Below, piece by piece: positions 12,197 to 51,008 of a stretch of DNA of 55,727 nucleotides. The stretch comes from a virus: the UHGV virus genome UHGV-0036148; one strand, written 5' to 3'. A model generated the notes under the pieces. That model saw only the letters and a program-made list of their open reading frames with translations. It was not told where the DNA came from and made no database searches. Positions within the stretch are counted from its first letter, which is position 1. The number at the start of each line of letters is the position of its first letter. The translations under genes were made by a program, and so were the position numbers.

Positions 12197-12289
12197 TCCA
12201 TTTTGTATACTTTTTTAAAATATTTTATATGCTATTGATATCTAAACAATAAATAGCGTTTTCTGTTTACGTTTTGGTGTTTTTTTGGG

Positions 12290-12320: not shown

Positions 12321-12968
12321 TTATGGCAGGTTTACGATCTTCGCATCAACCACCACGCCCAATATTTTTGACTCTGGATTCATAGGGATCGGCGGATACA
12401 ACGGATTCAGTGAACGCAAAAGTTTTCGGCCTCCATCAATAATCAACTGTTTAAACGTAGGTATCTGCCCTTCCTCCAGTTGTGCTATAACAAGTTTTCC
12501 GTCAATAGCTGGCGCGTGCGGGTCAACGAGTATCATAGTCCCCGCCGGGATGCTTAACCCCTGCGGTGCGTTCATTGATTCACCTTTAGCAACCAGCCAA
12601 TAACTATCATCCGAACAAATAACGCTAGTAGCAACGTGTGGCAATGTTGATCGGTGTGTGCCTTCCATATTGTTTGCTACATCCTTCCAGTCAACAACCG
12701 GATAACTGCCTAAATCACGCGGTGGCGCTCCCGGCAACGTGTTAGAAACAGAATCATCAATGACCATTCCGTCATGAGTAACAGTGAATTGCCGACGCCC
12801 AAGCGCCCGCATGATACGCGCAATATCTTCAAGATTCGGCTCACGGCGACCGTTCAGCCAGTGAGAAAGGCCGCCTTTGGTTATCCCCATAAGATCAGCC
12901 AATGAATCCTGGCTCATGCCCTGCGCCCGCATGAGTTGTTTTGCTAAGTCATACCATTTTGTTTTCAT
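12321..12968 (-). CDS. cI: CI-like repressor (HTH_XRE + S24 LexA-like peptidase)
   Basis: N-terminal HTH (QDSLADLMGITKGGLSHWLNG), C-terminal S24 domain with AKGESM serine motif and K later. Confidence 0.8.
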   Translation of the reverse strand: MKTKWYDLAKQLMRAQGMSQDSLADLMGITKGGLSHWLNGRREPNLEDIARIMRALGRRQFTVTHDGMVIDDSVSNTLPGAPPRDLGSYPVVDWKDVANNMEGTHRSTLPHVATSVICSDDSYWLVAKGESMNAPQGLSIPAGTMILVDPHAPAIDGKLVIAQLEEGQIPTFKQLIIDGGRKLLRSLNPLYPPIPMNPESKILGVVVDAKIVNLP

Positions 12969-13273: not shown

Positions 13274-13528
13274 ATGAGCATGAACATGATTAGCGAAGTA
13301 TGGAAAGTAAAACTTAACAGCCCGATTCAAAAACTGGTCTTAATGGCTCTGGCTGAAAAGGCAGATAACCGCCGTCACGTCATGGTATCACGACAAGAAA
13401 TTGCAAAAATGTGTGAACTTCCTGTTCATACGGTACATGATGCCTTCGCTGCGTTAATGCATAAAGGGTTTGTTTGTCGTCTTGATGCGTTCAGTGATGT
13501 CTATGTAGTGATGTTACCGGAGGAATGA
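13274..13528 (+). CDS. HTH DNA-binding protein, Cro-like candidate
   Basis: first gene of rightward operon divergent from repressor; AGGAG SD before ATG 13274; HTH-like segment. Confidence 0.45.
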   Translation: MSMNMISEVWKVKLNSPIQKLVLMALAEKADNRRHVMVSRQEIAKMCELPVHTVHDAFAALMHKGFVCRLDAFSDVYVVMLPEE

Positions 13529-13531
13529 TCT

Positions 13532-14578
13532 ATGAAGTGGTTTAAGCATGATAGCGATGCGAACCGCGATGAAAAACTTCAAAACGTTTTATTAGATTAT
13601 GGCCTGGAAGGGTACGGGCTTTATTGGTATTGCCTCGAACTAATAACTTATGACGTAGATCAGCACAATCTGACTTTTGACCTACGACATGACGCGAGAA
13701 TCATTGCGCGAAACGTCGGATCGACTGAAAAACGTATAGAAGAAATGATGAAATACTTCATCGAAATTGGTTTGTTTGAATGTTCTCAAGGCCACATAAC
13801 TTGTTTAAAGTTATTGAAAAGGCTGGACCAATCAATGACTTCTAAAAGCGCTTACAGGGCCGCCATAAACACAGCGAAGGAGCAATTAAAATTAGAAAAG
13901 TTAATCAATCCAACACAAAAAGGTCATGATAGGGTCATGACCGGGTCAGGAAAGGGTCATGAATTAGAATTAGAAGAAGAAAGAGAAAAAGATATATACA
14001 CTTCGTGTATTGTCGAAAATGAACAAAAAATGGTCAATCAGGATGGCGTAAACGAAGCGGCGTTGCGTTGCCTGGCCTTCTACAACGACAAGGCAGGATG
14101 CAAATGTCGTGATGCGAAGCCATTCATCGAACTACTGACAGAAACAAAAACACGTAAAGCGTATACGGAGGATGAGATCACATTAGTGATTGAGTGGGCT
14201 TTAACGCAATGGCGTAGCCGTGGTGGAACACCTAAGCCTATCAATATTTGCCGGGTAACTAAATTTGATGGGTATCTGACTGATGCTGAACAATGGCGCA
14301 AACTGTCAGCCACCGCAAACGCTGCCGACGTGGTGGAAGCATTTAACAGCACGTTTGACAGCCTGTTACCACCTGTCGAACTGGATCGGGATCTTGAGCG
14401 CAAGATCTATGCGTTCACTGACTACCTGAAAGACAAAAGCATTAACGGCTTTGTCGCCTACTTCGAAACGTTCAAAAACACGGCTTCAGATTTTTACTTC
14501 GGCGATGGCTTCACAGCGACACTTGATTTTCTGCTTAAACCAAAAACGCTACGCGATACACGCGCAGGCGCTCTTTGA
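13532..14578 (+). CDS. replication initiator / replisome organizer
   Basis: N-terminus MKWFKHDSDANRDEKLQNVLLDYGLEGYGLYWYCLE resembles the phage replisome-organizer N-terminal domain; contains iterons. Confidence 0.6.
   Translation: MKWFKHDSDANRDEKLQNVLLDYGLEGYGLYWYCLELITYDVDQHNLTFDLRHDARIIARNVGSTEKRIEEMMKYFIEIGLFECSQGHITCLKLLKRLDQSMTSKSAYRAAINTAKEQLKLEKLINPTQKGHDRVMTGSGKGHELELEEEREKDIYTSCIVENEQKMVNQDGVNEAALRCLAFYNDKAGCKCRDAKPFIELLTETKTRKAYTEDEITLVIEWALTQWRSRGGTPKPINICRVTKFDGYLTDAEQWRKLSATANAADVVEAFNSTFDSLLPPVELDRDLERKIYAFTDYLKDKSINGFVAYFETFKNTASDFYFGDGFTATLDFLLKPKTLRDTRAGAL
13915..14010. other. candidate origin of replication (iterons + AT-rich tract) inside initiator gene
   Basis: four 11-bp-spaced copies of GGTCATGA/GGTCAGGA followed by AT-rich attagaattagaagaagaaagagaaaaagatatata. 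Confidence 0.5.
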
Positions 14579-14712
14579 CCACCCACGATCCGCAAAAACC
14601 CAAAATAACCCGCAAAACAAGCTCGCCAGCGAGATAAATCGCATGTGGTGCTACACTTACTTACCTTTTTGCGATTAGCTCGTTATAGAGCGTTACAGAG
14701 AGGATTTCAAAA

Positions 14713-14814
14713 ATGGACGGTAAACACGTTTTCGCCCTGGCTTTTGCCATCGCCGCTGCAATAGCTGTTAACGTCGCCTTGTTCGGCGGTTTGTTCCTTC
14801 TCGTCAATCCATAA
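14713..14814 (+). CDS. mini membrane peptide (33 aa)
   Basis: MDGKHVFALAFAIAAAIAVNVALFGGLFLLVNP; GAGG SD. Confidence 0.3.
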   Translation: MDGKHVFALAFAIAAAIAVNVALFGGLFLLVNP

Positions 14815-14946
14815 CCTACCTACCAGTCTGTAAATCAAAAATTAGCCACCCGATAGCGCCTCTAGCGCAATAAGACACTGCAACCTGTGCAAACGGGTTA
14901 CGCGGTGGGATTTTTGCGTTGTAGAGCGTTTTACGGAGAAATTACA

Positions 14947-15684
14947 ATGTCTGAGTTGATGTGTTTTAATTTTGATGACAATAAAATCACTGCTGTAATT
15001 TATGACGGTAAACCTGCTTTTGTTGCGGTTGATGTGGCCCGTGCGCTGGGGTACAACGACGAGCATCAGGCCATTAAAAAACATTGTAAGTCATTGATTA
15101 AACTTGATTCCGTTAAAACAACGGAATTAGGTTTTGGGTTCAGACCAAAAGGCATAATTATAATTCGAGAGGCAGATATATACCGTCTTGTTATGAGATC
15201 AAAATTAGAATCAGCCGAGCGCTTCCAGGATTGGGTGTGCGAGGAGGTTCTTCCGGCTTTGCGTGAAAATGGGTGTTACGGTTGCAAACCTGCTTTGCCT
15301 GACTTCTCTAACCCTGCGGAAGCGGCGCGGGCGTGGGCTAATGAATACGAGCAAAAATTGTTAGTTAAGCAAGAAAATGAACGTCTTGCGCTTGAAAATA
15401 AAGTGCTGGCTCCGAAAGCGGCTGTATGTGACGCGATAGTCAAAAACGATATGCACCGAACGGCTTCAGAGGTAGCTAAACCGCTGGGAATGTCAGCCGT
15501 AAAATTAAACAGAAAACTTTCGGCGGTTGGTGTTTATGATCTTCGCTGTCGCCGCCGTGTATTCAGTCAGTGGTTTATTGATGAGGGCTACGGTGAAATG
15601 AGGGTAACTCACGATGGATATGAGCAGGCTGTATTCACTGCTAAAGGACAAGTATGGATCACTGAGCTTTTAACTTGCAACTAA
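14947..15684 (+). CDS. antirepressor (Bro-N + KilA-C/Ant domains)
   Basis: FNFDDNKITAVIYDGKPAFVAVDVARALGY Bro-N signature; C-terminal Ant-like region; GGAG SD. Confidence 0.75.
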   Translation: MSELMCFNFDDNKITAVIYDGKPAFVAVDVARALGYNDEHQAIKKHCKSLIKLDSVKTTELGFGFRPKGIIIIREADIYRLVMRSKLESAERFQDWVCEEVLPALRENGCYGCKPALPDFSNPAEAARAWANEYEQKLLVKQENERLALENKVLAPKAAVCDAIVKNDMHRTASEVAKPLGMSAVKLNRKLSAVGVYDLRCRRRVFSQWFIDEGYGEMRVTHDGYEQAVFTAKGQVWITELLTCN

Positions 15685-15718
15685 GTATACAATTTGTTAT
15701 TCGTGAGGAAATGACACT

Positions 15719-16837
15719 ATGTCACAAAGAAAAATCAGCGATGAGCAATTGATCGCTGAATATAACAACGGTTTAACGTACAAGCAGATCGCTGAAAAAT
15801 ATGGCATGTCAAAACGCAACGTCGAGCGGCTAGGCGCAAAACTGGCGAAACGCGGTTTAATATCCACGCGTCGCGCACCGGGTTTTGGCGTCAATGCTGA
15901 GTCATTGCTCGTCGATAAGGATGGCAATGTGATCATGCGCTGGATTAAAACAGCCCGTGACCGCGACGAAATGGAACAGTTAATGGAAGCGGCCCGCGAC
16001 GCTTTCACGGATGAAATACCACGCGCGGAGGCTGTGCCAGTGCCTGAAATTGATTTTCAAAAAAGCCTGGCCCTTTATCCGGTGTTTGATCTGCATATCG
16101 GGGCGCTTGCTCATAAAGCTGAATGCGGCGAGAGCTACGACACTGGGATCGCTGAGCGCGTGTTGAATGACTTCTTTGACTACGCTGTTGGCGCTGCTCC
16201 GATGTCTGAAAAAGCCGTACTGCTCCTCGGTGGCGATCTGCTTCATTCTGACGGTATGGTCCCGGTGACGCCAATAAGCGGGCACATTCTTGATCAAGAT
16301 AGTCGCTACGCAAAACTTGTTTATGTGGCGATCCGGTCTGTCCGGCGGGCGGTAGGTAAAATGTTGTTAAATCATAAGGATGTTGAAATCCAGGTGTTAT
16401 CAGGCAATCACGATCAGTCAGGCATGATTTGGCTACGTGCGGCGCTGGCGGCTTTTTACGAAGATGAACCGCGCGTGACGGTTGATGTGTCCCCTACTAT
16501 CGTCCACCACACACAGTACGGCAAAACATTCCTTGCTTACCACCACGGGCACACTATCAAAAAGCCGGAAAATTTATTGTCTGCTTGCGTAGCTGACTGG
16601 CGTGAGGATTTCGGCAAGTCTGCGGCGGTTTACGCTCATTGCGGGCACTGGCATCATCAACGGCTGATTGAATCATCGTTAGGCGTTGTTGAGTATCACG
16701 GCACATTAGCGGGTAAAGACGCTTATTCAACGAATGGCGGTTGGCGGTCGCGGCGTCTGGCGGCGGTGATTATTTACAGCCCGGATCATGGGGAAATTGG
16801 GCGCTTTGTTTATTACCCTGAATATTCCATTTTGTAA
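15719..16837 (+). CDS. HTH domain fused to calcineurin-like metallophosphoesterase
   Basis: N-terminal HTH (LTYKQIAEKYGMSKRNVERL); phosphoesterase motifs DLHIG, GGDLLH, GNHD, HHGH, GHWHH. Confidence 0.6.
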   Translation: MSQRKISDEQLIAEYNNGLTYKQIAEKYGMSKRNVERLGAKLAKRGLISTRRAPGFGVNAESLLVDKDGNVIMRWIKTARDRDEMEQLMEAARDAFTDEIPRAEAVPVPEIDFQKSLALYPVFDLHIGALAHKAECGESYDTGIAERVLNDFFDYAVGAAPMSEKAVLLLGGDLLHSDGMVPVTPISGHILDQDSRYAKLVYVAIRSVRRAVGKMLLNHKDVEIQVLSGNHDQSGMIWLRAALAAFYEDEPRVTVDVSPTIVHHTQYGKTFLAYHHGHTIKKPENLLSACVADWREDFGKSAAVYAHCGHWHHQRLIESSLGVVEYHGTLAGKDAYSTNGGWRSRRLAAVIIYSPDHGEIGRFVYYPEYSIL

Positions 16838-16855: not shown

Positions 16856-18271
16856 ATGGTAACTGAGCAAATAAACTCACTACGGCAGGAACGTGAAGCG
16901 TCAGTTATCGGCGGGCTACTGTTAGGTGGCCTTACTCCTAACGCGCAAGATGTTCTCGCCACACTTGATCCTGAAGTGTTCACGATCCCGCTTTATAAAC
17001 GTGCGTTTGAAGTTATCCGGGCGCAAGCCAGAAACAGGAATCTTATCGACGCGTTATTAGTTGGCGATGAGATTGGCAATGAAAACTTTGTACCGCTAAT
17101 GCAAACGGCGCGATCGTGTCCTTCTGCTGCCAACCTGAAGGGATACGCACAGCTACTACGTGAAGAGCACCAGCGGCGGCAGATGCTGGAACTCATCGAC
17201 GATATGCGCTACAAGCTGGAAACGGGGACGCTTGAAGTCGTCAAAGAGACGATGAAAGATTTTGATTCCCGGTACTCAAAATTAAAGGTAACGAAAGACA
17301 AGATTATTCCGGTTCTGTTGCGCGATGCGGTACAGGAATACACGGAGGTGTTAAGCAAACGCATGGAATGCGGTGTCAATTCTGACAACATCAAAACAGG
17401 GATAGAACCACTCGACGAAATGTTAGGCGGAATTAACGCTACTGATTTGGTACTTCTCGCCGGACGTCCTGGGTCTGGTAAATCTGCGTTGGCGCTTGCA
17501 ATTGCTCGCGAGGCTGCCGAGCGCCCTTACCCTGGTGGCGAAGGTCAGCGGGTAGGCGTTTTGCTGTTTACGCTTGAAATGTCACTCGATCAGATGACTG
17601 AACGGGCCATTGCTGGCGCTGGTAATTTATCAACTGACTGCCTGCGCAATCCGGTAAAACTTGATGATGAGGGTTGGGCGCATGTCGGCCAGGGTATGAG
17701 CGCACTTGCTAATCTTGAGGTGTGGATCGTTGACGCGTCGCAGTTAACGGTTGAGGAAATACGCGCAACAACGGAACGCATGAAGCAGGATCACCCAAAC
17801 TTGGGCATGGTAATGATTGACTACATCGGTTTAATGAAGCTGGCTAAAGCCGAACGTCACGATCTCGCTGTAGGGCAATTGTCATGGTCGTTGAAGATGA
17901 TGGCGAAAGAATTGCGCGTACCAGTGTTGGCGCTGGCCCAGTTATCCCGCCGCGTTGAGGAACGACCTAACAAGCGCCCTAATAATTCAGATCTTCGAGA
18001 TTCAGGGAACCTTGAGCAAGACGCTGACAGGATCATCATGGTTTACCGCGATGGTTATTACGATGAGCAGTCTGTAGCACGCGAATACATGGAAATAATT
18101 GTATCTAAAAACCGTCACGGGAAAACTGGTACTGTTTACCAGCGGTTTGATGACAACGGCAATATCCTCCCTTGTGACCAGGCCCGCGCAGCGTCTGCAT
18201 GTATTCAGTCTATGAATCATCGTACAAGCAGATTTAACCAACGAAACAACCAGAATAACGCATCCTTTTAA
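16856..18271 (+). CDS. dnaB: DnaB-family replicative helicase
   Basis: Walker A GRPGSGKS, Walker B MVMIDYIGLM, DnaB-like N-terminal domain. Confidence 0.85.
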   Translation: MVTEQINSLRQEREASVIGGLLLGGLTPNAQDVLATLDPEVFTIPLYKRAFEVIRAQARNRNLIDALLVGDEIGNENFVPLMQTARSCPSAANLKGYAQLLREEHQRRQMLELIDDMRYKLETGTLEVVKETMKDFDSRYSKLKVTKDKIIPVLLRDAVQEYTEVLSKRMECGVNSDNIKTGIEPLDEMLGGINATDLVLLAGRPGSGKSALALAIAREAAERPYPGGEGQRVGVLLFTLEMSLDQMTERAIAGAGNLSTDCLRNPVKLDDEGWAHVGQGMSALANLEVWIVDASQLTVEEIRATTERMKQDHPNLGMVMIDYIGLMKLAKAERHDLAVGQLSWSLKMMAKELRVPVLALAQLSRRVEERPNKRPNNSDLRDSGNLEQDADRIIMVYRDGYYDEQSVAREYMEIIVSKNRHGKTGTVYQRFDDNGNILPCDQARAASACIQSMNHRTSRFNQRNNQNNASF

Positions 18272-20568: not shown

Positions 20569-20786
20569 TGGATAAGATCGGCACAATTCTTATTAATCGT
20601 GAACAAGTGCAAAAAATGTTAGGCGGGCTTAGTAAGTCAGCATTTTTTAAACTGGTTAAAAAATGGAAGGATTCAGGTACTCCATTCCCTGAACCCGTTA
20701 AGGGGATGCCAGCGTTAAAGCGCGGCGGATATCTTTACCGTTATCAGGATGTTATTTCATTTTGTAAGTCAATGGGTTTCATGTAA
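20568..20786 (+). CDS. AlpA/excisionase-family small DNA-binding protein
   Basis: INREQVQKMLGGLSKSAFFKLVKK...PFPEPVKG pattern resembles AlpA/Vis-type HTH; convergent with integrase. Confidence 0.5.
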   Translation: MDKIGTILINREQVQKMLGGLSKSAFFKLVKKWKDSGTPFPEPVKGMPALKRGGYLYRYQDVISFCKSMGFM

Positions 20787-21958
20787 TAATCAGCCAGCTT
20801 ATTCATCGCCTCTATTTGTTCCCTCACATAGTCATACTGATCGTATATAGCAAACATCCCAGCCAGCTTATGCCCCAAAACCTTTTCCGCAACGTGAGGC
20901 GCAACGCCAAGCGCTGAAAGGTTTGTTCTCACGGTGCGGCGTAGATCGTGACACGACCACGACTCGCCGCCCATCCTTATCATTAAATCCCTCGCTGCTG
21001 TTTTCGGTACACTTCTGTCCACTGCTTCATCCCTTCCAGAAAGCACAGGAACGAAGACAAAATCAAAGCTATGCAGATCCATAGCCTCGCGCAATAAAGC
21101 TACGCTAACGTCTGATAAACCGCGTTTAAACTCGTTCCTGTTCTTACTCAATGCACCTGGCACCGTCCACACACAGCTATCAAGATCGAAATGCTCGCGC
21201 CTTGCGTTTGTCAGTTCGCTTGTTCTACATCCGGTGAGTATAATCAGCTTCATCAATATCTGGTTCAGCCGCGCCATTTTTGAACTGTCTATAAGGCTGA
21301 TTAGATGGTGAATCTCTTGTATTGACAAAACGCGTTTCCTTTGCGCCGGGTTTTTGCCTACATCTTTCACACGTAGCAATGATATGTCGTCACGATCCAC
21401 GCGGCGGCGGCGCATGGCGTACTTTATTACCGCCTTCATTCTGTTGAGAACTATCCCTGCCTGAACTGGTGCGCCACCACTGGCTACCTTTCTAAAAACC
21501 CCCTCCCACATCATAGCGTCCATATCATCGACTATATAGCTACCGTATGGTTTTATGACGTGCTTATCTAGCATGCCCTCAACCTGCTTATAATTGACCA
21601 TGTTCCTTGCCTGCGGCGATTCCATGTACTCCCTTACAATATCCTCAACCGTTGCCCGTGTCGTAACGCGGGAAAGGTGCATTCTTTTTGCTACCGATGG
21701 ATCTCGACCTGAGTTTAGCACTTCCTTATGCTCCGCCACCGCCGCCCGCGCTTCCTTGAGTGTTATTTCTCCGTATGTTCCTATCTTCATCCGTCGAGGC
21801 TTGCCGTTGAATCGGTAGCGATACTGGAAGGATATAACTCCTCGCGGGCTTATCCTGGCAGACAATCCGCCAGCGTCCGGTACTTCTTTCGGGCCGTCGT
21901 ATGGCTTGCCGTGGATGTTTCGTAATTTGGTATCTGTAAGCATAATTTTGGTCACCAT
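20744..21958 (-). CDS. int: tyrosine integrase
   Basis: C-terminal catalytic region HDLRRT...LGH...Y; ATG at 21958 (longer upstream-extended frame exists). Confidence 0.85.
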   Translation of the reverse strand: MVTKIMLTDTKLRNIHGKPYDGPKEVPDAGGLSARISPRGVISFQYRYRFNGKPRRMKIGTYGEITLKEARAAVAEHKEVLNSGRDPSVAKRMHLSRVTTRATVEDIVREYMESPQARNMVNYKQVEGMLDKHVIKPYGSYIVDDMDAMMWEGVFRKVASGGAPVQAGIVLNRMKAVIKYAMRRRRVDRDDISLLRVKDVGKNPAQRKRVLSIQEIHHLISLIDSSKMARLNQILMKLIILTGCRTSELTNARREHFDLDSCVWTVPGALSKNRNEFKRGLSDVSVALLREAMDLHSFDFVFVPVLSGRDEAVDRSVPKTAARDLMIRMGGESWSCHDLRRTVRTNLSALGVAPHVAEKVLGHKLAGMFAIYDQYDYVREQIEAMNKLADYYMKPIDLQNEITS

Positions 21959-22256
21959 TTGGTACACACATTTTACGCATGGATAGTACCACGATAGAAA
22001 ACGATATGACACGATAGAATAAATATTTCTTTTAAAATCAAGGTGAAGAGGTAACGATGTGACACGATGTGAAATGATAGAAATGGCACTATCCATTTAT
22101 CTTTTGAATGGGTGGACTAACGAAAAACTGATTTATATTCAACATCTTATGCTTTGTTTTTGCTTTTAATTTATCGATTTGGTCACAATTTGGTACACAA
22201 AAAGAAACGAGGCGTTAGCCTCGTTTCGCGCGGCGATGTTCTTCGCACATCACCTC
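21944..22256. other. attP-like region with direct repeats and clustered short repeats
   Basis: 22-bp direct repeat TTTGGTCAC(C/A)ATTTGGTACACA at 21947 and 22188; multiple ACGATAG/GACACGAT repeats between. Confidence 0.4.
22214..22238 (-). terminator. rho-independent terminator downstream of tail fibre gene
   Basis: minus strand AAACGAGGC-taac-GCCTCGTTT followed by CTTTTTG. Confidence 0.5.
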
Positions 22257-25200
22257 TTATTCTTCGCTTCCGGTCAACTGACTGATAAGCGCTTCAAGTT
22301 TTGCTATCCGCTCATCCATTGCTGCAATGTTAGCTTTCAGGCTTGCGTTCTCCTCTTCCAGTTCAGTGACGCGGTTATCCGTTTCGCGTGCCACCTGGAC
22401 AAGTAAACCAGTCACCGCCGCATAGTCAACATTAAGGTAACGTGTTTCTTCTCGTAGCTCGTTGCCGTCAACGGTCGGACCCTGCAATTCATTACCGTAA
22501 CGAGTAAACGATCCTACGGCTTCCGGTAGCGCCTCCATTACTTCCTGTGCAATAACGCCAGCATAAGGAAGGCCGTTTTCCCTGAGCGTGTAGGTGTACC
22601 CGTTCATTTTGCGGATTGATTCAGTGGCTTCACCTATAACCTGAATGTTATCTTTAAGGTCGCGGTCAGATGATTGGTGAAGTGTCTGGCATGTGATATT
22701 ACCGCTAACATCAAACATTTGACCTGATGATGTTTTTTGTGCATAAAACAGGTATCCGGCAGATGTTCCAACCTCAAAAACGTTTTGTCGATCACTTGAC
22801 CCCCAGACCCTGATGCTAACTGGCAGTTCTGAATTACCTGAATTAAGTAAAGCAAAACGACTGCCCGTCCCTGCTTGTTTTCTAATTACTAAATCGGCAG
22901 TTGAGTTAACCTCATCTTTGTTGATGGTTAGCGCCTGTTTTGTAGCACCTTTGACAGTACCACTTAGTAATTGAACTGCGCCGTCGTCGCCATTTAACAG
23001 CACTTGAGCGCTGCTTCTGTGGTTTTTCAGGAACAACATTTTGCCTGTGCTTTCTGATGTGCCTACCGACCACGCCGAATTGGTTCCAGTGCTATCAACA
23101 CCGCGTACAGTACAATTCATCGCGCTATAATCTGACGTACTTCCAAGTACATCAACGCGCCCGCCACCTAATTTTGATGGAGCCGCCGAGGTTAACGACC
23201 TGACGGTTACATCCTGATTTCTTCCTGAAACAACAATCTGACTCCATGCAGACCAGTTACCATTTTCACAATAGCGAACGTATATTTGTTTCGTGTCTGT
23301 GCCAACAAGGGTTTGCAAGTTTGTATAATCTGAATCCGTGATCTTACGAATTGACTCTACACGAAGCAAAAAGTTGCCGCCTACGCCGTCAGGCTTATTG
23401 GTAATATTTGCACCGCCTCCGGCAGTTCTGCATTGATAGTATTTAACTGACCCTTTATCTGTGCCTTTTATGGTCAGATTATTAAGATCAACAGCCACTT
23501 CAGAAATGCTTTCAGGCTCAATTGCTCCCGCCATACCTGCGTTAAATGTGGCAAGGTCAGAAAAGGTTGTTTTGCCGCCTACCGTTACCCCGCTATCGAG
23601 TATTGCTTGTGTAATTACTTTGCTGTTTTTTGTGTGGTCAGAATAACTACCAAAATACAAATCACCGTCACCAGCTATACCCAGGTATTTTTGATCAACA
23701 TCATCAACCTTAAACCCAATGGACAAGTTTTTAATTGTGTTGTTGCGCGTTAAAACCAAAGGCGTATGCTGAGATCCTTTGATGCTTACCGTAGTGTTAT
23801 CGGAACTGGTGCTTGTGTTTGCAAATTCTGCGGTGGCTCCGCTGATTTTGTAAGTTACTTTTAGATCGCGGGCCTCAACCCTCCCGTCGTGGCGAACAAT
23901 AAGATCCCCTCCTGTTACGCCTTTTGCGTTTTTGGCCCTGATGCGAACTTCGCCAAGCGTATCAGTATTTGCAGGCGCCCAAACAATGCCGCGCTCACTA
24001 TCATCGTTATTATAAAACCGCAAAGCTGCGATTCCATCGACTGCCCGCAGGAAGACTGACGGTGTACCTTTTTTGATTGTCAAGTCACCGGTCATTGTAT
24101 CGCCGGTTTTTTTTACCTGCGCATCGTTAGTTACGTTACCAAGTCCAACGTCCGATTTCGACGGCTTATTTTGGGTTCCGTATAGCTCATTAATGGCATA
24201 AGTGCCGCTGTTGAGTCCAGTATCGTTACCAGCGAAAATCTTGACCCTGGCATTTTCGTATTCGATATTAATCGCTGACCACGTATCACCGCACCGCGAG
24301 AATATACCAGAACCGTGGCTATAAATGGTCGCCGTGCTTCCGGTCGGCCTATCACCGCGCCAGAAATGACCACCTTTGTCACGCAGAGCTTTTAATAGTT
24401 CTGTATTGCTCATCTTGCCGTTTGTTGCTATCCCGCTACCGCCAAGACCGAAAGCGCCTGTAAGCATAGCATTAGAAAGGCCCAGATCTGCCTTGCTGGG
24501 TTTGTTTACCTGGTCGTAAATCCTTGCTGCTGGGCTTTCAATATATCCAGCGGGTGCGTCGGCTTGCTTAACAAATCCTTCAGGAATGTATAATTCCGTG
24601 TTGCCAGTCTGCGCCAGCACCGCTACTTTTGTGTTTTTAATATAAGATCGCTGGTAGCACCAGACCTCGATATAGCCGTCACCTTTAACCAGGCCGTAAC
24701 ACATTTGACTATTATTGGGAAGGTTTGGTGAACCGAGTCGGCGAATACTTAAAAATTTAGATATATTTTCACTGGTTACTTCGCCTGTGTCGTTAAGACC
24801 TCGAGCGGAGATCTCTATAAAGTCAATATTCCCGTAACTTAAACCGTAGCCACCGCCATTTGTAACCATTAGCGTTAAGTGGCAGTCTGATGACTTTGGA
24901 TCGCTAAGTTTAGCAATCTTAACGTAAGCGCCATTACCGCTAGTTTCAACAGGCCAAGCACATTGGACCATTGGGCTGGTAAGCCTTCCCATTTGATTCA
25001 GATATTCTTGCGCCCTGTCCTCTGATGTTTTGGCTTTGGTTTCGCTTGTTTTCGCTGCCGTCTCGCTTGCCTTAGCGTTGGTTTCTGATGTTTTCGCTGC
25101 CGTGGCGGATTTTGCAGCCGCTGTTTTTGACGCTTCTGCTGCGTTTTTGTCGGATCCTGTTTTTTGAGCGTTGGCGGTTGATTTGGCTGTTTCTGCGCGA

Positions 25201-25577
25201 ATGTTGGTAAGAAGCTGATCCAACTGACCTTCGCCGCCAAAATCTTCCCACCACTCGACAGCGGAGGCGATTTCTGTTTCCTTGCCCTGGTAGTAACGCA
25301 GGGTTTCAGCTACGTCCTGAGCAAGCCCATCAACTGAGATCGAGTCAGATAGCAGGATGCTGAATTTTGTCCCGGCAGGGATGGCGGGGTTAGCCGCTGG
25401 CGTCACTGACAGTTCAGTGCCGCTTTTAATTTCTGTGATGGTAAAGATCTGTACCGGATTGCCAACAGCAATGAGCGTGCAACCTACACGAATAAGAGAA
25501 AGCGGCGCGGAAAAGTTTGTTCCCGTGCCTTTAACAGTATTGCCGTTAATGGCAACTGTTCCAGTTGTGTAAATCAT
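22257..25577 (-). CDS. tail fibre protein with C-terminal intramolecular chaperone (S74-like) domain
   Basis: 1106 aa; Ala/Lys/Thr low-complexity linker; C-terminal SDRDLKDNI...GYTYTLRENG...GVIAQE motif typical of autocleaving chaperone domains. Confidence 0.8.
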   Translation of the reverse strand: MIYTTGTVAINGNTVKGTGTNFSAPLSLIRVGCTLIAVGNPVQIFTITEIKSGTELSVTPAANPAIPAGTKFSILLSDSISVDGLAQDVAETLRYYQGKETEIASAVEWWEDFGGEGQLDQLLTNIRAETAKSTANAQKTGSDKNAAEASKTAAAKSATAAKTSETNAKASETAAKTSETKAKTSEDRAQEYLNQMGRLTSPMVQCAWPVETSGNGAYVKIAKLSDPKSSDCHLTLMVTNGGGYGLSYGNIDFIEISARGLNDTGEVTSENISKFLSIRRLGSPNLPNNSQMCYGLVKGDGYIEVWCYQRSYIKNTKVAVLAQTGNTELYIPEGFVKQADAPAGYIESPAARIYDQVNKPSKADLGLSNAMLTGAFGLGGSGIATNGKMSNTELLKALRDKGGHFWRGDRPTGSTATIYSHGSGIFSRCGDTWSAINIEYENARVKIFAGNDTGLNSGTYAINELYGTQNKPSKSDVGLGNVTNDAQVKKTGDTMTGDLTIKKGTPSVFLRAVDGIAALRFYNNDDSERGIVWAPANTDTLGEVRIRAKNAKGVTGGDLIVRHDGRVEARDLKVTYKISGATAEFANTSTSSDNTTVSIKGSQHTPLVLTRNNTIKNLSIGFKVDDVDQKYLGIAGDGDLYFGSYSDHTKNSKVITQAILDSGVTVGGKTTFSDLATFNAGMAGAIEPESISEVAVDLNNLTIKGTDKGSVKYYQCRTAGGGANITNKPDGVGGNFLLRVESIRKITDSDYTNLQTLVGTDTKQIYVRYCENGNWSAWSQIVVSGRNQDVTVRSLTSAAPSKLGGGRVDVLGSTSDYSAMNCTVRGVDSTGTNSAWSVGTSESTGKMLFLKNHRSSAQVLLNGDDGAVQLLSGTVKGATKQALTINKDEVNSTADLVIRKQAGTGSRFALLNSGNSELPVSIRVWGSSDRQNVFEVGTSAGYLFYAQKTSSGQMFDVSGNITCQTLHQSSDRDLKDNIQVIGEATESIRKMNGYTYTLRENGLPYAGVIAQEVMEALPEAVGSFTRYGNELQGPTVDGNELREETRYLNVDYAAVTGLLVQVARETDNRVTELEEENASLKANIAAMDERIAKLEALISQLTGSEE

Positions 25578-26034: not shown

Positions 26035-29000
26035 TTATCCTGAGAATGAACCAGAACCGCGCGACACTATGACTGTCGGCGAATTTATATAAGCCCCCTT
26101 GTCATTTTGAGCAGATACCTTAATTTTAACTGTAACGCCCCTGCTGGTTACTGCTGCTGAATGCATAACAAGGCGCTCCGTGCCATCCAGTGCTGAATCT
26201 TTTGATGAACCGCCGATTGTTATTGTGCAACCACCAAAACCCTTAACGTTAGCCATAACGCAGATATGTCGGCTATACGCTGCGTCAGATGTGTCATTGT
26301 ATGTTATTACTTTTTCCAGCATCCCATCCCTTAACGTGCTAACGTCAGAACCTGTGTACATGTTTGCAACATCACCGATAAAGGTTTTCGCCTCAAGTGA
26401 ACCGGTAAACTTGCCGCTGTCTGCATGTATTTCACCCCTTACAACAACGTTGTTAAATTCTGATGCGCCGCTTTGTGTTATCCTCCAACCATTGGAACCG
26501 GGGACGAAGTTTGCTGATTTAATTTCATTGACAATTTTAGCCATAGTAATAGAGGCATCTGCAATTTTAGCTGTCCCTATTGATGCATCCTTAATAAATG
26601 CCTCTTTCACATACATTGCGCCGTTAGTGACATAGAAGGGCGATGTATATGCGCCGTTTGCCGCCGTCATTAACACGAAGCGGTCAACAAGGAAAATGCA
26701 CTGCGACTGAAAGTTAGTGCCATCACCAGTCAGGCCAAGCGACATACCTGTTGCGTATTTCATGCCGTTGTTGTCGGTGGCGAGCTTGATTGAATATGTC
26801 GCATCAACATTACCCCTAAAGTCGGTTAACGCTTTAGATGTCGTCTCTATTGCTGTCTTATTCCCGTTAACGGTAACTGTTAGCTGATCAATTTTCGTTG
26901 ACAACGCCTTATCTGCTGTAGCCATTGCCTGCGACCATTCTGTAATGCTTGAGTTTACCGATTCGAAAGACGCTGAGATCTGGCTAAATTTTTCTGCGCT
27001 TGATTCCTCATGCGTAGAAAGTGCCGTTGATACTTCAGACACTTTTGAATTGATCGTACTGGTAAGCGATGCGCTAAGGCCGCTTATTGCGTCTGCGCGT
27101 GCTTTTGTTTCGTCGGCGATGGCTTTGTCCATCCTGGTGACGTTGCTTGTCACTTTATTATCAAGCGTGCTGACACTTGCGCTAACTTCGCTGATAGCTT
27201 GTCCTCTGGCGCTTGTTTCGTCAGCAATTGCCTGATCAAGACGGTTTACGCTGGCTTCAGTCTTCTTATCAAGATTAGTGATCGATGCGCTTACCCCGCT
27301 AATGGCTTCCGCTGTTGCTTTTTTCTCTTCTGCCACAACGTTGTCAATGCGGTCGATTTTCGCGTTGGTTTCCCTGATTCCTTTCTTGTATTGGGCAGAA
27401 AGAGTAACACGCGTGTTGGTTTGAGCGATTGAGTTATTGATAAGTGCAATAGATGCGTTTTGCAGGCTTGCTTTTGCCTGATTTATTTCGTCGCTGTTTT
27501 TGCCAACATTATTTTCAACAGTGCCAAGATTTGCGCTGAGTCCTGATATTGCTTGTGCGCGGGCGCTTGATTCATCGGCAATTGCCTGATCAAGACGCTT
27601 AACGCTGGCGTTTGTGCTGTTCTCAAGCGTTGTTAAATCTGCTTTAACCTCTGTTATTGCGTCGCTTCTTGCCTGCGTTTCATCTGCTATTGCTTTATCA
27701 AGACGGGAAACGCTCGCGTCGGTTTTTCTTTCTAGACTGTCTATTGAGGCGTTCACGCCACTGATTGCTTGTGCGCGTGCGCTGGCCTCGTCAGAAATTG
27801 CCTGATCAAGTCTGCTTACTTCTGATTTGGTGTTGCTTTCAAGTGTGCTAATACTTGCATTCACGCTGCTGATAGCGTCAGTGCGTGCCTTCGTTTCGTC
27901 AGCAATCGCCTTATCAAGACGATTAACGTTACTTGTGACCTTACCGTCAAGTGTGGAAATTGACGCCTTCACACCGTTAATGGCTTCAGTTCTCGCGCTC
28001 GTCTCGTCTGCTATTGCCTTATCAAGACGGCTTATACTTGAGTCAGTTTTCTTGTCGAGAGCTGATACCGAGGCGTTTACTCCACTAATAGCCTCGCTGC
28101 GGGCGCTTGTTTCGTCTGCAATAGCTTGATCCAAACGTTTAACGCTGGCGTCAGTTTTCTTGTCAAGTGCTGAGATATTTGCGTTAACGTCGCTGACTGC
28201 CTGGGTGCGTGCGCTTGTTTCGTCGGCGATAGCTTGATCAAGGCGGTTAACGCTGGCGTCAGTTTTCTTGTCAAGATTGCTTATTGAGGCGTTTACACCG
28301 TTAATAGCTTCAGCGCGTGCGCTGGCCTCGTCAGCTACTGCGCGTTGCACGCTAGAAATCTGACCTTTGAGGTTTGAATCCATCGTATTCATTTCTGCCG
28401 TGATGGTTTTCAGTGATTCCGCTGTCGCTTTTTTCTCTTCAGCGATAACGTTGTCAATACGGTCAATTTCCGCTTTAGTCTCTGTCCTGCCTTTCTTGTA
28501 CTGAGCGGTAAGAGTTACGCGCGTGTTTGTCTGTGCAAGTGAGTTATTAATAAGAGCAAGTGACGCGTTTTGCATGCTTGCTTTCGCTTGCGCCAGTTCG
28601 CTGCCAACTTTTTCGCTGGACACTTCTAATGAATCAATTCTTGACTCATGCTGACCAATATCATCGGCGTTTTCCTTAACTTTTTTATAAAGATCTTCTG
28701 TTTCTTTTTTTAGCGTATCTGTATCAGCTTTTATTGATCCTGTTTCTGTAATCAGGTTGTCAGTATCATTTCTTAAATCTTCGGTTATGTTAGTCAGGTT
28801 GTCGGTTTCAGTTCTTAAATCGTCAGTTATGTTGGTCAGATTATCAGTTGCAGTTTTGAGGTTGTCGGTAGCTGCTTTTAGTTCATTTGTGGCATTTTCA
28901 ATAACATCCGTGCGATCACCAAGATCTTTGATGTCACCAATCATTTCCTTGAACTGTTCTGAGTTCATCACGTCTTTGGTGACGTAATCGCTGATTTCAT

Positions 29001-50423: not shown

Positions 50424-51008
50424 TTACCCCCGTTTAAAGCTCATCACACGCGGTACAAGCGCCTCTTTTGTTTTAGGCTTACGTTTGCCTTTCTTAGCTG
50501 GTTTTTTCTCTTCTTTCGGCTCCTCTGCCTGTTCAACTGCCTGTTCTGCTGCATCAGTCGCCTTCTCTGCCTGTTCCAGTGCCTTCTCTACGACTTCGGC
50601 GGCCTGCATAGCTGCCAACTGTGCTTCGTTAGATTCAGCAAGGATCGGGAAGAATGCGTCAAAGATGCGGCCCACCATGTAAGCATAAGTCTCGTTCGCT
50701 GGATGGCTTGGATCAGTGGTCGCTACGACGCCCACATCGCTCAGTACGTGGAATGTAGTGTGTGCGCATTCATGGACCAGAGTACCAAGCTCATTATCGA
50801 ATACTGCGATCACGTAGAAGTTACCGCCTTTCTCGCCAGTGCAAGTAAGTGTTAAACCTCCTGCCAGTTCAAAATCAGGTTCGATTGGAATGCCTGCCTT
50901 TTCGCAAAACTCGTAAAACATGTCGCGAGTAGGGCAGAAGAAAACTGTTGTATGCTCAAAGAGCGGGACTTTGAATTGAGGCAATTTAATGCCTTTAGCC
51001 TTAGCCAT
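50424..51008 (-). CDS. HExxH motif protein (putative zinc metallopeptidase-like) with Ala/Glu/Lys-rich basic tail
   Basis: LVHECAHTTFH motif; AGGAG SD; low-complexity C-terminus. Confidence 0.45.
   Translation of the reverse strand: MAKAKGIKLPQFKVPLFEHTTVFFCPTRDMFYEFCEKAGIPIEPDFELAGGLTLTCTGEKGGNFYVIAVFDNELGTLVHECAHTTFHVLSDVGVVATTDPSHPANETYAYMVGRIFDAFFPILAESNEAQLAAMQAAEVVEKALEQAEKATDAAEQAVEQAEEPKEEKKPAKKGKRKPKTKEALVPRVMSFKRG

Follow-up and report, generated by a model that had tools for sequence, protein, structure and literature searches.

The layout in which a replication origin lies inside the gene of its own initiator is known already from the phages lambda and P22. The lambda ori lies in gene O (PMC7466680). 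Gene 18 of P22 carries four 20-nt repeats at nt 352-438, and the repeats together with the adjoining tract rich in adenine and thymine (AT tract) occupy nt 352-466. Among the RepA_N plasmids, pSK41 has four Rep boxes in the centre of rep and a dispensable linker in Rep, and in the pPR9 chimera the N-terminal domain and ori were replaced by a pfam13730 helix-turn-helix (HTH) with the C-terminal domain kept (PMC5703833). In this work a locus of the same layout was analysed in the virus genome UHGV-0036148, the whole of which (55,727 nt, referred to as the 55.7-kb window) was covered. Here the layout is built around an uncharacterised DNA-binding domain, Lin1244_N (DUF4373), at the N-terminus of a replication initiator. 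Positions 13918-14000, within the linker-coding part of the initiator gene, are predicted to form a theta-type replication origin of this phage, a reading to which we give a probability of about 0.78 on the grounds of sequence comparison. A probable replication origin would thereby be placed for the mEp021 (mEpimmI) group of gut coliphages, and the Pfam family DUF4373/Lin1244_N would gain a testable function as an origin-binding initiator domain; the understanding of how origin-in-gene systems work is unchanged.

In P22 (18/ori) and in the lambdoid phages (O/ori), as in this phage, four direct repeats are followed by an AT-rich tract in mid-gene, between an origin-specific N-domain and a partner-specific C-domain. 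With P22 there is also true homology: the last 86 aa of the initiator (14318-14575) were 37% identical to the C-terminus of gp18 (BLASTP, E 1e-14), and the helicase encoded downstream was 57% identical to the P22 gp12 helicase. The C-terminus also gave tblastn matches to P22-like and Stx-phage 'O' proteins. A further likeness to the lambdoid module is the position of the initiator gene in an early rightward operon beside a CI-like repressor. The N-domain, in contrast, belongs to another family than those of lambda and P22. The first-pass annotation of this DNA had called the locus ori-lambda-like, and those sequence-level predictions of that reading which were put to the test were all borne out; because the N-domain is not a homologue of that of lambda O and the iterons are 11-bp rather than ~19-bp units, the resemblance to lambda is architectural. 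Unlike the RepA_N plasmids, the replicon is a phage, its initiator had no Pfam match to RepA_N (PF06970), and the C-terminal domain would recruit a DnaB-type helicase rather than DnaG primase.

Phased repeats and AT-rich tract in the initiator gene

Positions 13915-14010 read ACAAAAA-GGTCATGA-tag-GGTCATGA-ccg-GGTCAGGA-aag-GGTCATGA-ATTAGAATTAGAAGAAGAAAGAGAAAAAGATATATACAC, and the sequence read directly at the repeat array in the initiator gene of UHGV-0036148 is aaaGGTCATGAtagGGTCATGAccgGGTCAGGAaagGGTCATGAattagaattagaagaagaaagagaaaaagatatatacac. The first-pass annotation had described four copies about 11 bp apart, followed by a 40-bp AT-rich stretch, all inside the initiator open reading frame (ORF), and each of these points was borne out. 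The 8-mers start at 13922, 13933, 13944 and 13955, giving start-to-start steps of exactly 11, 11 and 11 bp; the GC (guanine plus cytosine) content was 22.5% at 13960-13999; and both elements fall within 13532-14578, a gene identified as an initiator by its Lin1244_N domain, its PHROG matches and its gp18-like C-terminus.

The array stood out from the window by several measures. Tandem Repeats Finder reported it at 13918-13963 with a period of 11, 4.2 copies and a score of 57, which tied for the top score among the short-period arrays of the whole window. Apart from these four copies, GGTCAKGA was absent from the + strand of the window, for the whole of which 2.08 matches would be expected, and no second cluster of the repeat motif was present in the 55.7 kb. 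The lag-11 self-similarity of the gene reached 0.68 over 44 nt; 1000 codon shuffles never attained this value, and at short lags nothing else in the window was as high. The array occupies nt 387-431 of the 1047-nt gene.

Downstream of the repeats, the GC content was still 27.5% at 13980-14019, compared with 46% for the window. The 40-mer starting at 13959 consists of 78% AT and of 78% purine on the + (coding) strand, and only four other non-overlapping 40-mers of the window are less stable by nearest-neighbour free energy (z = 3.1). Matches to the DnaA box TTWTNCACA, a feature of DnaA-dependent origins, occurred four times in the window, each time more than 2 kb away from the repeats.

The core TCATGA is a 6-bp palindrome, which in copy 2 is extended to the 10-bp palindrome GGTCATGACC, and a capacity for hairpin formation follows automatically from the repetition of a palindromic core. 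Iterons 1 and 2 can form a hairpin with an 8-bp stem, followed by TTTTTGTGTT on the - strand, which was scanned as a terminator-like site at 13942-13922 (-). For the + strand the single-strand DNA hairpin had a predicted free energy of -9.2 kcal/mol (z -5.5), and for the - strand the value was -7.4 kcal/mol; weak promoter-like sites (9/12 matches) were found on the - strand at 14037-14009 and 14016-13989. Copies 1 and 2 might on these grounds be taken for a hairpin or cruciform, or for an intrinsic terminator of a minus-strand antisense transcript. This is hardly credible, as it leaves unexplained the four phased copies, the 21-22-bp arrangements and the non-palindromic repeat types seen in relatives, and the linked AT tract; moreover, promoter-like matches were no commoner than in shuffled sequence (6 found, compared with 3.6 +/- 1.8 expected).

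Initiator domains and the reading frame of the linker

The Pfam model Lin1244_N (DUF4373, PF14297) matched aa 3-87 of the initiator with 43.2 bits, against a cut-off of 25, and over model positions 1-88 of 95. For aa 1-129 at E <= 10 it was the only Pfam family reported apart from a weak sub-threshold match to ssDNA-exonuc_C (E 0.011, 15.9 bits, cut-off 26.4), and no match to a lambda-O-type N-domain was obtained. The protein also matched the PHROG families 'replication initiation O-like' and 'replication initiation protein', the 'O-like' match, phrog_345, being to a mixed family; relatives in RefSeq are annotated as 'Lin1244/Lin1753 domain-containing protein'. An AlphaFold2 model built on 67 homologues predicted with confidence a winged helix, with helices at 14-40, 51-62 and 66-78, a strand at 48-50 and a wing at 83-90. 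Residues 134-167, for which the repeats and the AT tract code, had a predicted local distance difference test (pLDDT) score below 50, so that the array is placed in a predicted disordered linker between the N- and C-terminal domains. The AT tract itself codes for the acidic linker segment ELELEEEREKDIY.

A period of 11 bp shifts the frame from one copy to the next, so that all three frames are used and the four encoded peptides differ, the copies being read as GGT-CAT-GAT (GHD), GTC-ATG-ACC (VMT), GGG-TCA-GGA (GSG) and GGT-CAT-GAA (GHE). Copy 3 is the one deviating copy, both in the window and in all close relatives, since the consensus would there be read as TCA-TGA, with an in-frame stop. 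In 29 distinct genes of the closest relatives (type A, defined below), copy 3 occurred in four variants (TCAGGA, TCATGT, TCATGG and TCAAGA), the full TCATGA being absent from this site. The 11-bp step and the cores of copies 1, 2 and 4 were constant in these genes, and the three spacer bases varied.

For a wider comparison, a search with the N-domain returned 417 homologues at E <= 1e-3, and 121 loci from viral and genome collections were cut to 62 lineages that were less than 90% identical in this domain. An exact TCATGA in the stop frame was found in none of the lineages; the motif is read in two frames, and the third is avoided or carries a degenerate copy. Many distant relatives bypass the stop frame by alternating 11- and 10-bp steps or by 21-bp steps. 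The codons used around the motif were strongly biased: linker His was CAT in 61/66 cases, the base before H[DE] was T in 59/66 cases and stood behind 10 different residues, Val before Met was GTC in 56/59 cases as against 26% of the Val codons across these genes, and linker Ile was ATC in 11/12 cases. The synonymous positions are fixed so as to keep TCATGA, and selection therefore acts on the DNA rather than on the peptide; this holds across lineages with as little as 45% N-domain identity. The linker leaves room for DNA signals because the peptide encoded there is flexible and has few constraints. The locus provides a clear case of overlapping protein-coding and DNA-signal constraints, in which the array crosses three frames and is degenerate only at the would-be stop.

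These observations bear on whether the repeats could lack any role as DNA and simply reflect a repetitive linker peptide or slippage during replication. The region does code for a low-complexity disordered linker, and the neighbouring AT tract grows and shrinks among relatives, its length varying by GAATTA hexamer steps in the 29 type A genes, where polymorphic sites made up 54% of the tract compared with 29% of the whole gene. Against such an explanation, which seems improbable in the extreme, stand the four different peptides encoded by the copies, the synonymous sites fixed for TCATGA, the invariance of the cores next to variable spacers and the restriction of the spacings to multiples of the helical repeat, which is described below.

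Exchange of N-domains with their repeats

The window represents a temperate coliphage that belongs to the mEp021 / 'mEpimmI' group. The region was 89-91% identical over its full length to MagusPhagus and mEp515 and 93-95% identical to Escherichia coli prophages; 35 genomes matched it in all, five mEp phages doing so over only about half of its length. In an alignment of nine initiators of the group, a C-terminal region of ~175 residues was common to all and >90% identical in eight, the mEp013 copy being more diverged. The N-domains were of two kinds. In type A (the window, the prophage of E. coli strain 127, MagusPhagus and mEp515) Lin1244_N was combined with the array of four GGTCATGA-type repeats. 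In type B (mEp021, mEp010, mEp013, mEp044 and mEp554, the five partial matches) the N-domain was HTH_36/DnaD_N-like, and the matching position of the gene held four dyad-symmetric iterons of ~20 bp at a spacing of 22-23 bp, followed by the AT-rich stretch CAGTCATATATAACC.

The type B initiators thus share with type A their genome position, their C-domain and the order of four iterons and AT-rich stretch inside the gene, and differ in the N-domain and in the iterons (e.g. GGTAGTGTCACAGTGACACC). The iterons of P22 and of type B are ~20 bp long and 20-24 bp apart, as opposed to the 11-bp units of the window, with a 6-bp palindromic core and one unit per turn. Iterons of the lambda type (~19 bp, with an internal dyad and about two turns apart) were accordingly absent from the window and present in type B. 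The iteron sequence of mEp021 (GGTAGTGGCACAAAGCAACC, at L003:2222-2332) was unlike that of mEp010 (GGTAGTGTCACAGTGACACC), mEp013 and mEp554, and further type B iterons lie at about 2218-2330 in the loci L004, L005 and L007.

Comparison with relatives for conserved repeats and periodicity, which the first-pass annotation had proposed as a check, gave a consistent picture: phages with the same N-domain kept the repeats, and those with a different N-domain had different repeats in the same place. This is the opposite of the loss of repeats from collinear relatives that the annotation had named as grounds for rejecting its reading. Since one C-domain is found with different N-domains and, at one and the same place, with correspondingly different repeats, the N-domain and the repeats have been exchanged together, and the alignments indicate that they change hands as a single module. 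Joint exchange of this kind is on record for lambdoid O genes and for the pSK41/pPR9 Rep chimera (PMC5703833). A side observation concerns the protein P0001, of 202 aa, from a 46-kb ENA contig. From the N-domain over the iterons to the ELELE tract it was identical to the initiator of the window, and it then ran into a Sigma70_r4/HTH segment in place of the gp18-like C-domain, with the junction just past the AT-rich tract. This suggests either that the AT-rich tract may serve as a recombination boundary or that the contig contains an assembly artefact.

Among more distant relatives, phased repeats were scored by local short-lag self-similarity compared with codon shuffles, whole-gene counts of the 8-mer with <=1 mismatch being too noisy (observed values were about equal to the shuffle maxima). 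The strongest short-period self-similarity fell at nt 300-520 of the gene in 50/62 lineages, with p <= 0.01 in 40 of these 50. Two or more exact copies of TCATGA (>=2) were present at the matching gene position in 33/62 lineages, which came from several phyla and extended down to 45% N-domain identity, and all 55 of the 55 spacings between neighbouring copies in these 33 lineages were 10, 11, 21, 22 or 31 bp, that is, multiples of the helical repeat. In the 40 nt that follow the final copy, both AT (0.69 compared with 0.60 for the whole gene; 28/33 lineages) and purine (0.76 compared with 0.59; 32/33 lineages) were enriched. Many homologues were 200-230 aa in length, with other C-terminal domains and the conserved linker peptide 'SHDxVMTxSxxVMQDKxRLDK'. 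In many distant relatives the purine/AT tract was itself periodic, with AGATTAGATAAG-type units at lags of 10 or 15 bp that encode 'DKxRLDKNRLDK' (L078:3397-3455, L069:3390-3443 and L091:3396-3454 are examples); such tracts may represent A-tracts in phase, or else repeats of another kind inside the putative unwinding element.

Other clades had other phased repeats (10-11 bp) at the matching place, namely GTCCCGACA-type repeats (up to about 12 copies), five copies of GCAATGCGACC or ATAACA-type repeats. In L040 and L041, two IMG/VR phages, GGTCATGA was replaced by CCATGG/CCATGA, five copies at 11 bp (L040:3421-3475). The N-domain of these phages was 83% identical to that of the window, and 12/18 of the substitutions lay in aa 65-95, which comprise the recognition helix and the wing, so that the pair looks like a natural switch of specificity. 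That origin specificity resides in the N-domain, and the choice of helicase or loader partner in the C-domain, is indicated by comparative evidence, namely the swap between types A and B with a conserved C-domain, the L040/L041 switch and the homologies to gp18 and gp12.

The same comparisons were used to weigh whether the repeats might instead be bound by the small winged-helix protein encoded immediately upstream (13274-13528), leaving the 348-aa protein as a replisome organiser only. This small protein matched PHROG 4617, 391 and 8540 ('replication initiation') over their N-terminal 70-90 residues and resembles the N-domains of O-like initiators; it was 32-34% identical to the N-domain of type B initiators, and the MagusPhagus annotation names it 'replication initiation protein'. 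Its divergence, however, was not linked to that of the iterons. Between type A and type B phages the identity was only 33-34%, and among phages with identical iterons it ranged from 61 to 100%, so that a protein of 61% identity accompanies identical GGTCATGA arrays and one of 71%, in L041, accompanies CCATGG. No homologue was detectable within 3 kb (<=3 kb) in the diverged loci with TCATGA arrays, whereas Lin1244_N is always present and changes in its recognition helix and wing when the repeat changes. Binding by the small protein is on balance very unlikely, and it could be a Cro/CII-like regulator or else derive from an initiator domain, as a remnant or a paralogue.

A second alternative is that the repeats are operator-like sites to which the initiator or another regulator binds, used mainly in autoregulation, in blocking of transcription or in handcuffing, and that the true origin lies elsewhere. 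Plasmid iterons commonly serve in both initiation and control, the repeats of the window sit within a transcribed gene, and further AT-rich stretches of low stability occur at 12206 and 18487. We nevertheless judge this unlikely: the repeats and the AT-/purine-rich tract have been kept together across the 33 lineages, their position agrees with that of the repeats in P22 gene 18, the window has no second cluster of the motif, and N-domain and repeats are swapped with the helicase-side C-domain retained, exactly as in proven origins.

As a tentative proposal, which taken as a whole falls a little short of probable, Lin1244_N/DUF4373 may define a large, widespread and uncharacterised class of phage initiators whose origin always lies in their own linker-coding DNA. 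One winged helix would occupy each turn, on contiguous 10-11-bp units with an often palindromic core, and the proteins would form a continuous one-sided array, adjoined by a purine-rich tract for unwinding. The reading frame would leave its mark on the array in the avoidance of stop codons and in alternating 10/11-bp steps. If this is true, the natural switches between TCATGA, CCATGG, GTCCCGACA, GCAATGCGACC and ATAACA would be a ready data set for a domain-DNA recognition code. For uncultured phages and prophages of several bacterial phyla, the comparison also offers a predictive rule, by which the origin is to be sought in the linker-coding DNA just past the N-domain.

Proposed initiation, neighbouring genes and other repeats

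For the origin proposed at 13918-14000, four Lin1244_N winged-helix domains would bind the four GGTCATGA-type sites and, because the sites are 11 bp apart, would line up next to one another along a single face of the helix. The resulting protein array would bend or strain the DNA and open the AT-rich tract (13959-14000), onto whose separated strands the gp18-like C-domain would bring the phage DnaB-type helicase; host primase and polymerase would then take over. More speculatively, transcription of the early rightward operon through the gene may aid opening, as in lambda. A comparable geometry is known from winged helices of the PhoB/OmpR type, which occupy adjacent units of tandem 11-bp direct repeats (pho boxes). 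The analogy would be confined to binding geometry, i.e. winged helices on 11-bp direct repeats along one DNA face, as the PhoB/OmpR proteins are transcription activators without a role in replication and the core in the present repeats is palindromic.

Several points count against placing an origin here. Binding, unwinding and origin activity are all inferred, for this phage and for any Lin1244_N protein. A 6-bp palindromic core at 11-bp steps is unusual for iterons, and either a monomer or a dimer may occupy each site. The AT tract ranks only fifth among the 40-mers for low stability, and lower with 100-bp windows. The change in sign of the GC skew near 12-13 kb (~12.5 kb) gives no independent support, being unusable as origin evidence because it coincides with the divergent early operons. 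When scored with simple motif classes, 25/62 lineages had fewer than three copies of any class; many of these 25 show phased repeats by eye. Finally, the genome paper on the mEp021 group mentions neither the origin nor the type B iterons, and the literature searches made on this protein family brought up no work on it.

The features of the locus and the adjacent genes are given in Table 1.

Table 1. Repeat array, initiator gene and neighbouring genes in UHGV-0036148
Feature	Position	Strand	Remarks
CI-like S24/HTH repressor	12321-12968	-	
Small winged-helix protein, 84 aa	13274-13528	+	3 bp upstream of initiator gene
Replication initiator gene, 348 aa	13532-14578	+	Lin1244_N, PHROG O-like families, gp18-like C-terminus
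N-terminal winged-helix domain (aa 1-129), putative iteron-binding module	13532-13918	+	Coding region
Iteron 1, GGTCATGA	13922-13929	+	TCATGA core invariant in 29 distinct close-relative genes
Iteron 2, GGTCATGA	13933-13940	+	With flanks, 10-bp palindrome GGTCATGACC; core invariant in close relatives
Iteron 3, GGTCAGGA	13944-13951	+	Degenerate copy
Iteron 4, GGTCATGA	13955-13962	+	Core invariant in close relatives
AT-/purine-rich tract adjoining iterons, putative DNA-unwinding element	13959-14000	.	GC content, stability, relatives
C-terminal domain	14036-14578	+	Coding region; >90% identity with most phages of the other N-domain/iteron type
Bro/Ant gene (Bro-N/ANT, anti-repressor type)	14887-15684	+	
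Exonuclease-like gene	15719-16837	+	
DnaB-type replicative helicase, putative partner	16856-18271	+	Pfam DnaB_C (1e-75) and DnaB N-terminal domain

Relatives differed in the stretch from the initiator gene to the exonuclease-like gene (14579-15718). The Bro-N/ANT gene was found in the window and in the prophage of E. coli strain 127, only short ORFs were present in MagusPhagus and mEp010, and the equivalent segment of mEp021 encodes a zinc-ribbon protein.

Further repeats were found elsewhere in the window. Two direct copies of TTTGGTCACnATTTGGTACACA occur 231 bp apart, at 21946-21970 and 22177-22203, and between them are several ACACGATAGAA-type repeats. These elements overlap the 5' end of the ORF for a tyrosine integrase with an arm-DNA-binding domain (20744-22096, -) and lie just beyond it, and the TTTGGTCACnATTTGGTACACA/ACACGATAGAA repeats probably represent arm-type attP sites. 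At 22203-22228 there is a strong terminator-like hairpin. Tandem repeats occur at 27959-28323 (108 bp x 3.4), 28752-28855 (42 bp x 2.5), 25026-25085 (21 bp x 2.9) and 50523-50589 (21 bp x 3.2). The array at 25026-25085 lies inside a 1106-aa ORF (22257-25577, -) with a Peptidase_S74 (endosialidase-chaperone) C-terminus, which probably encodes a tail fibre or tailspike.

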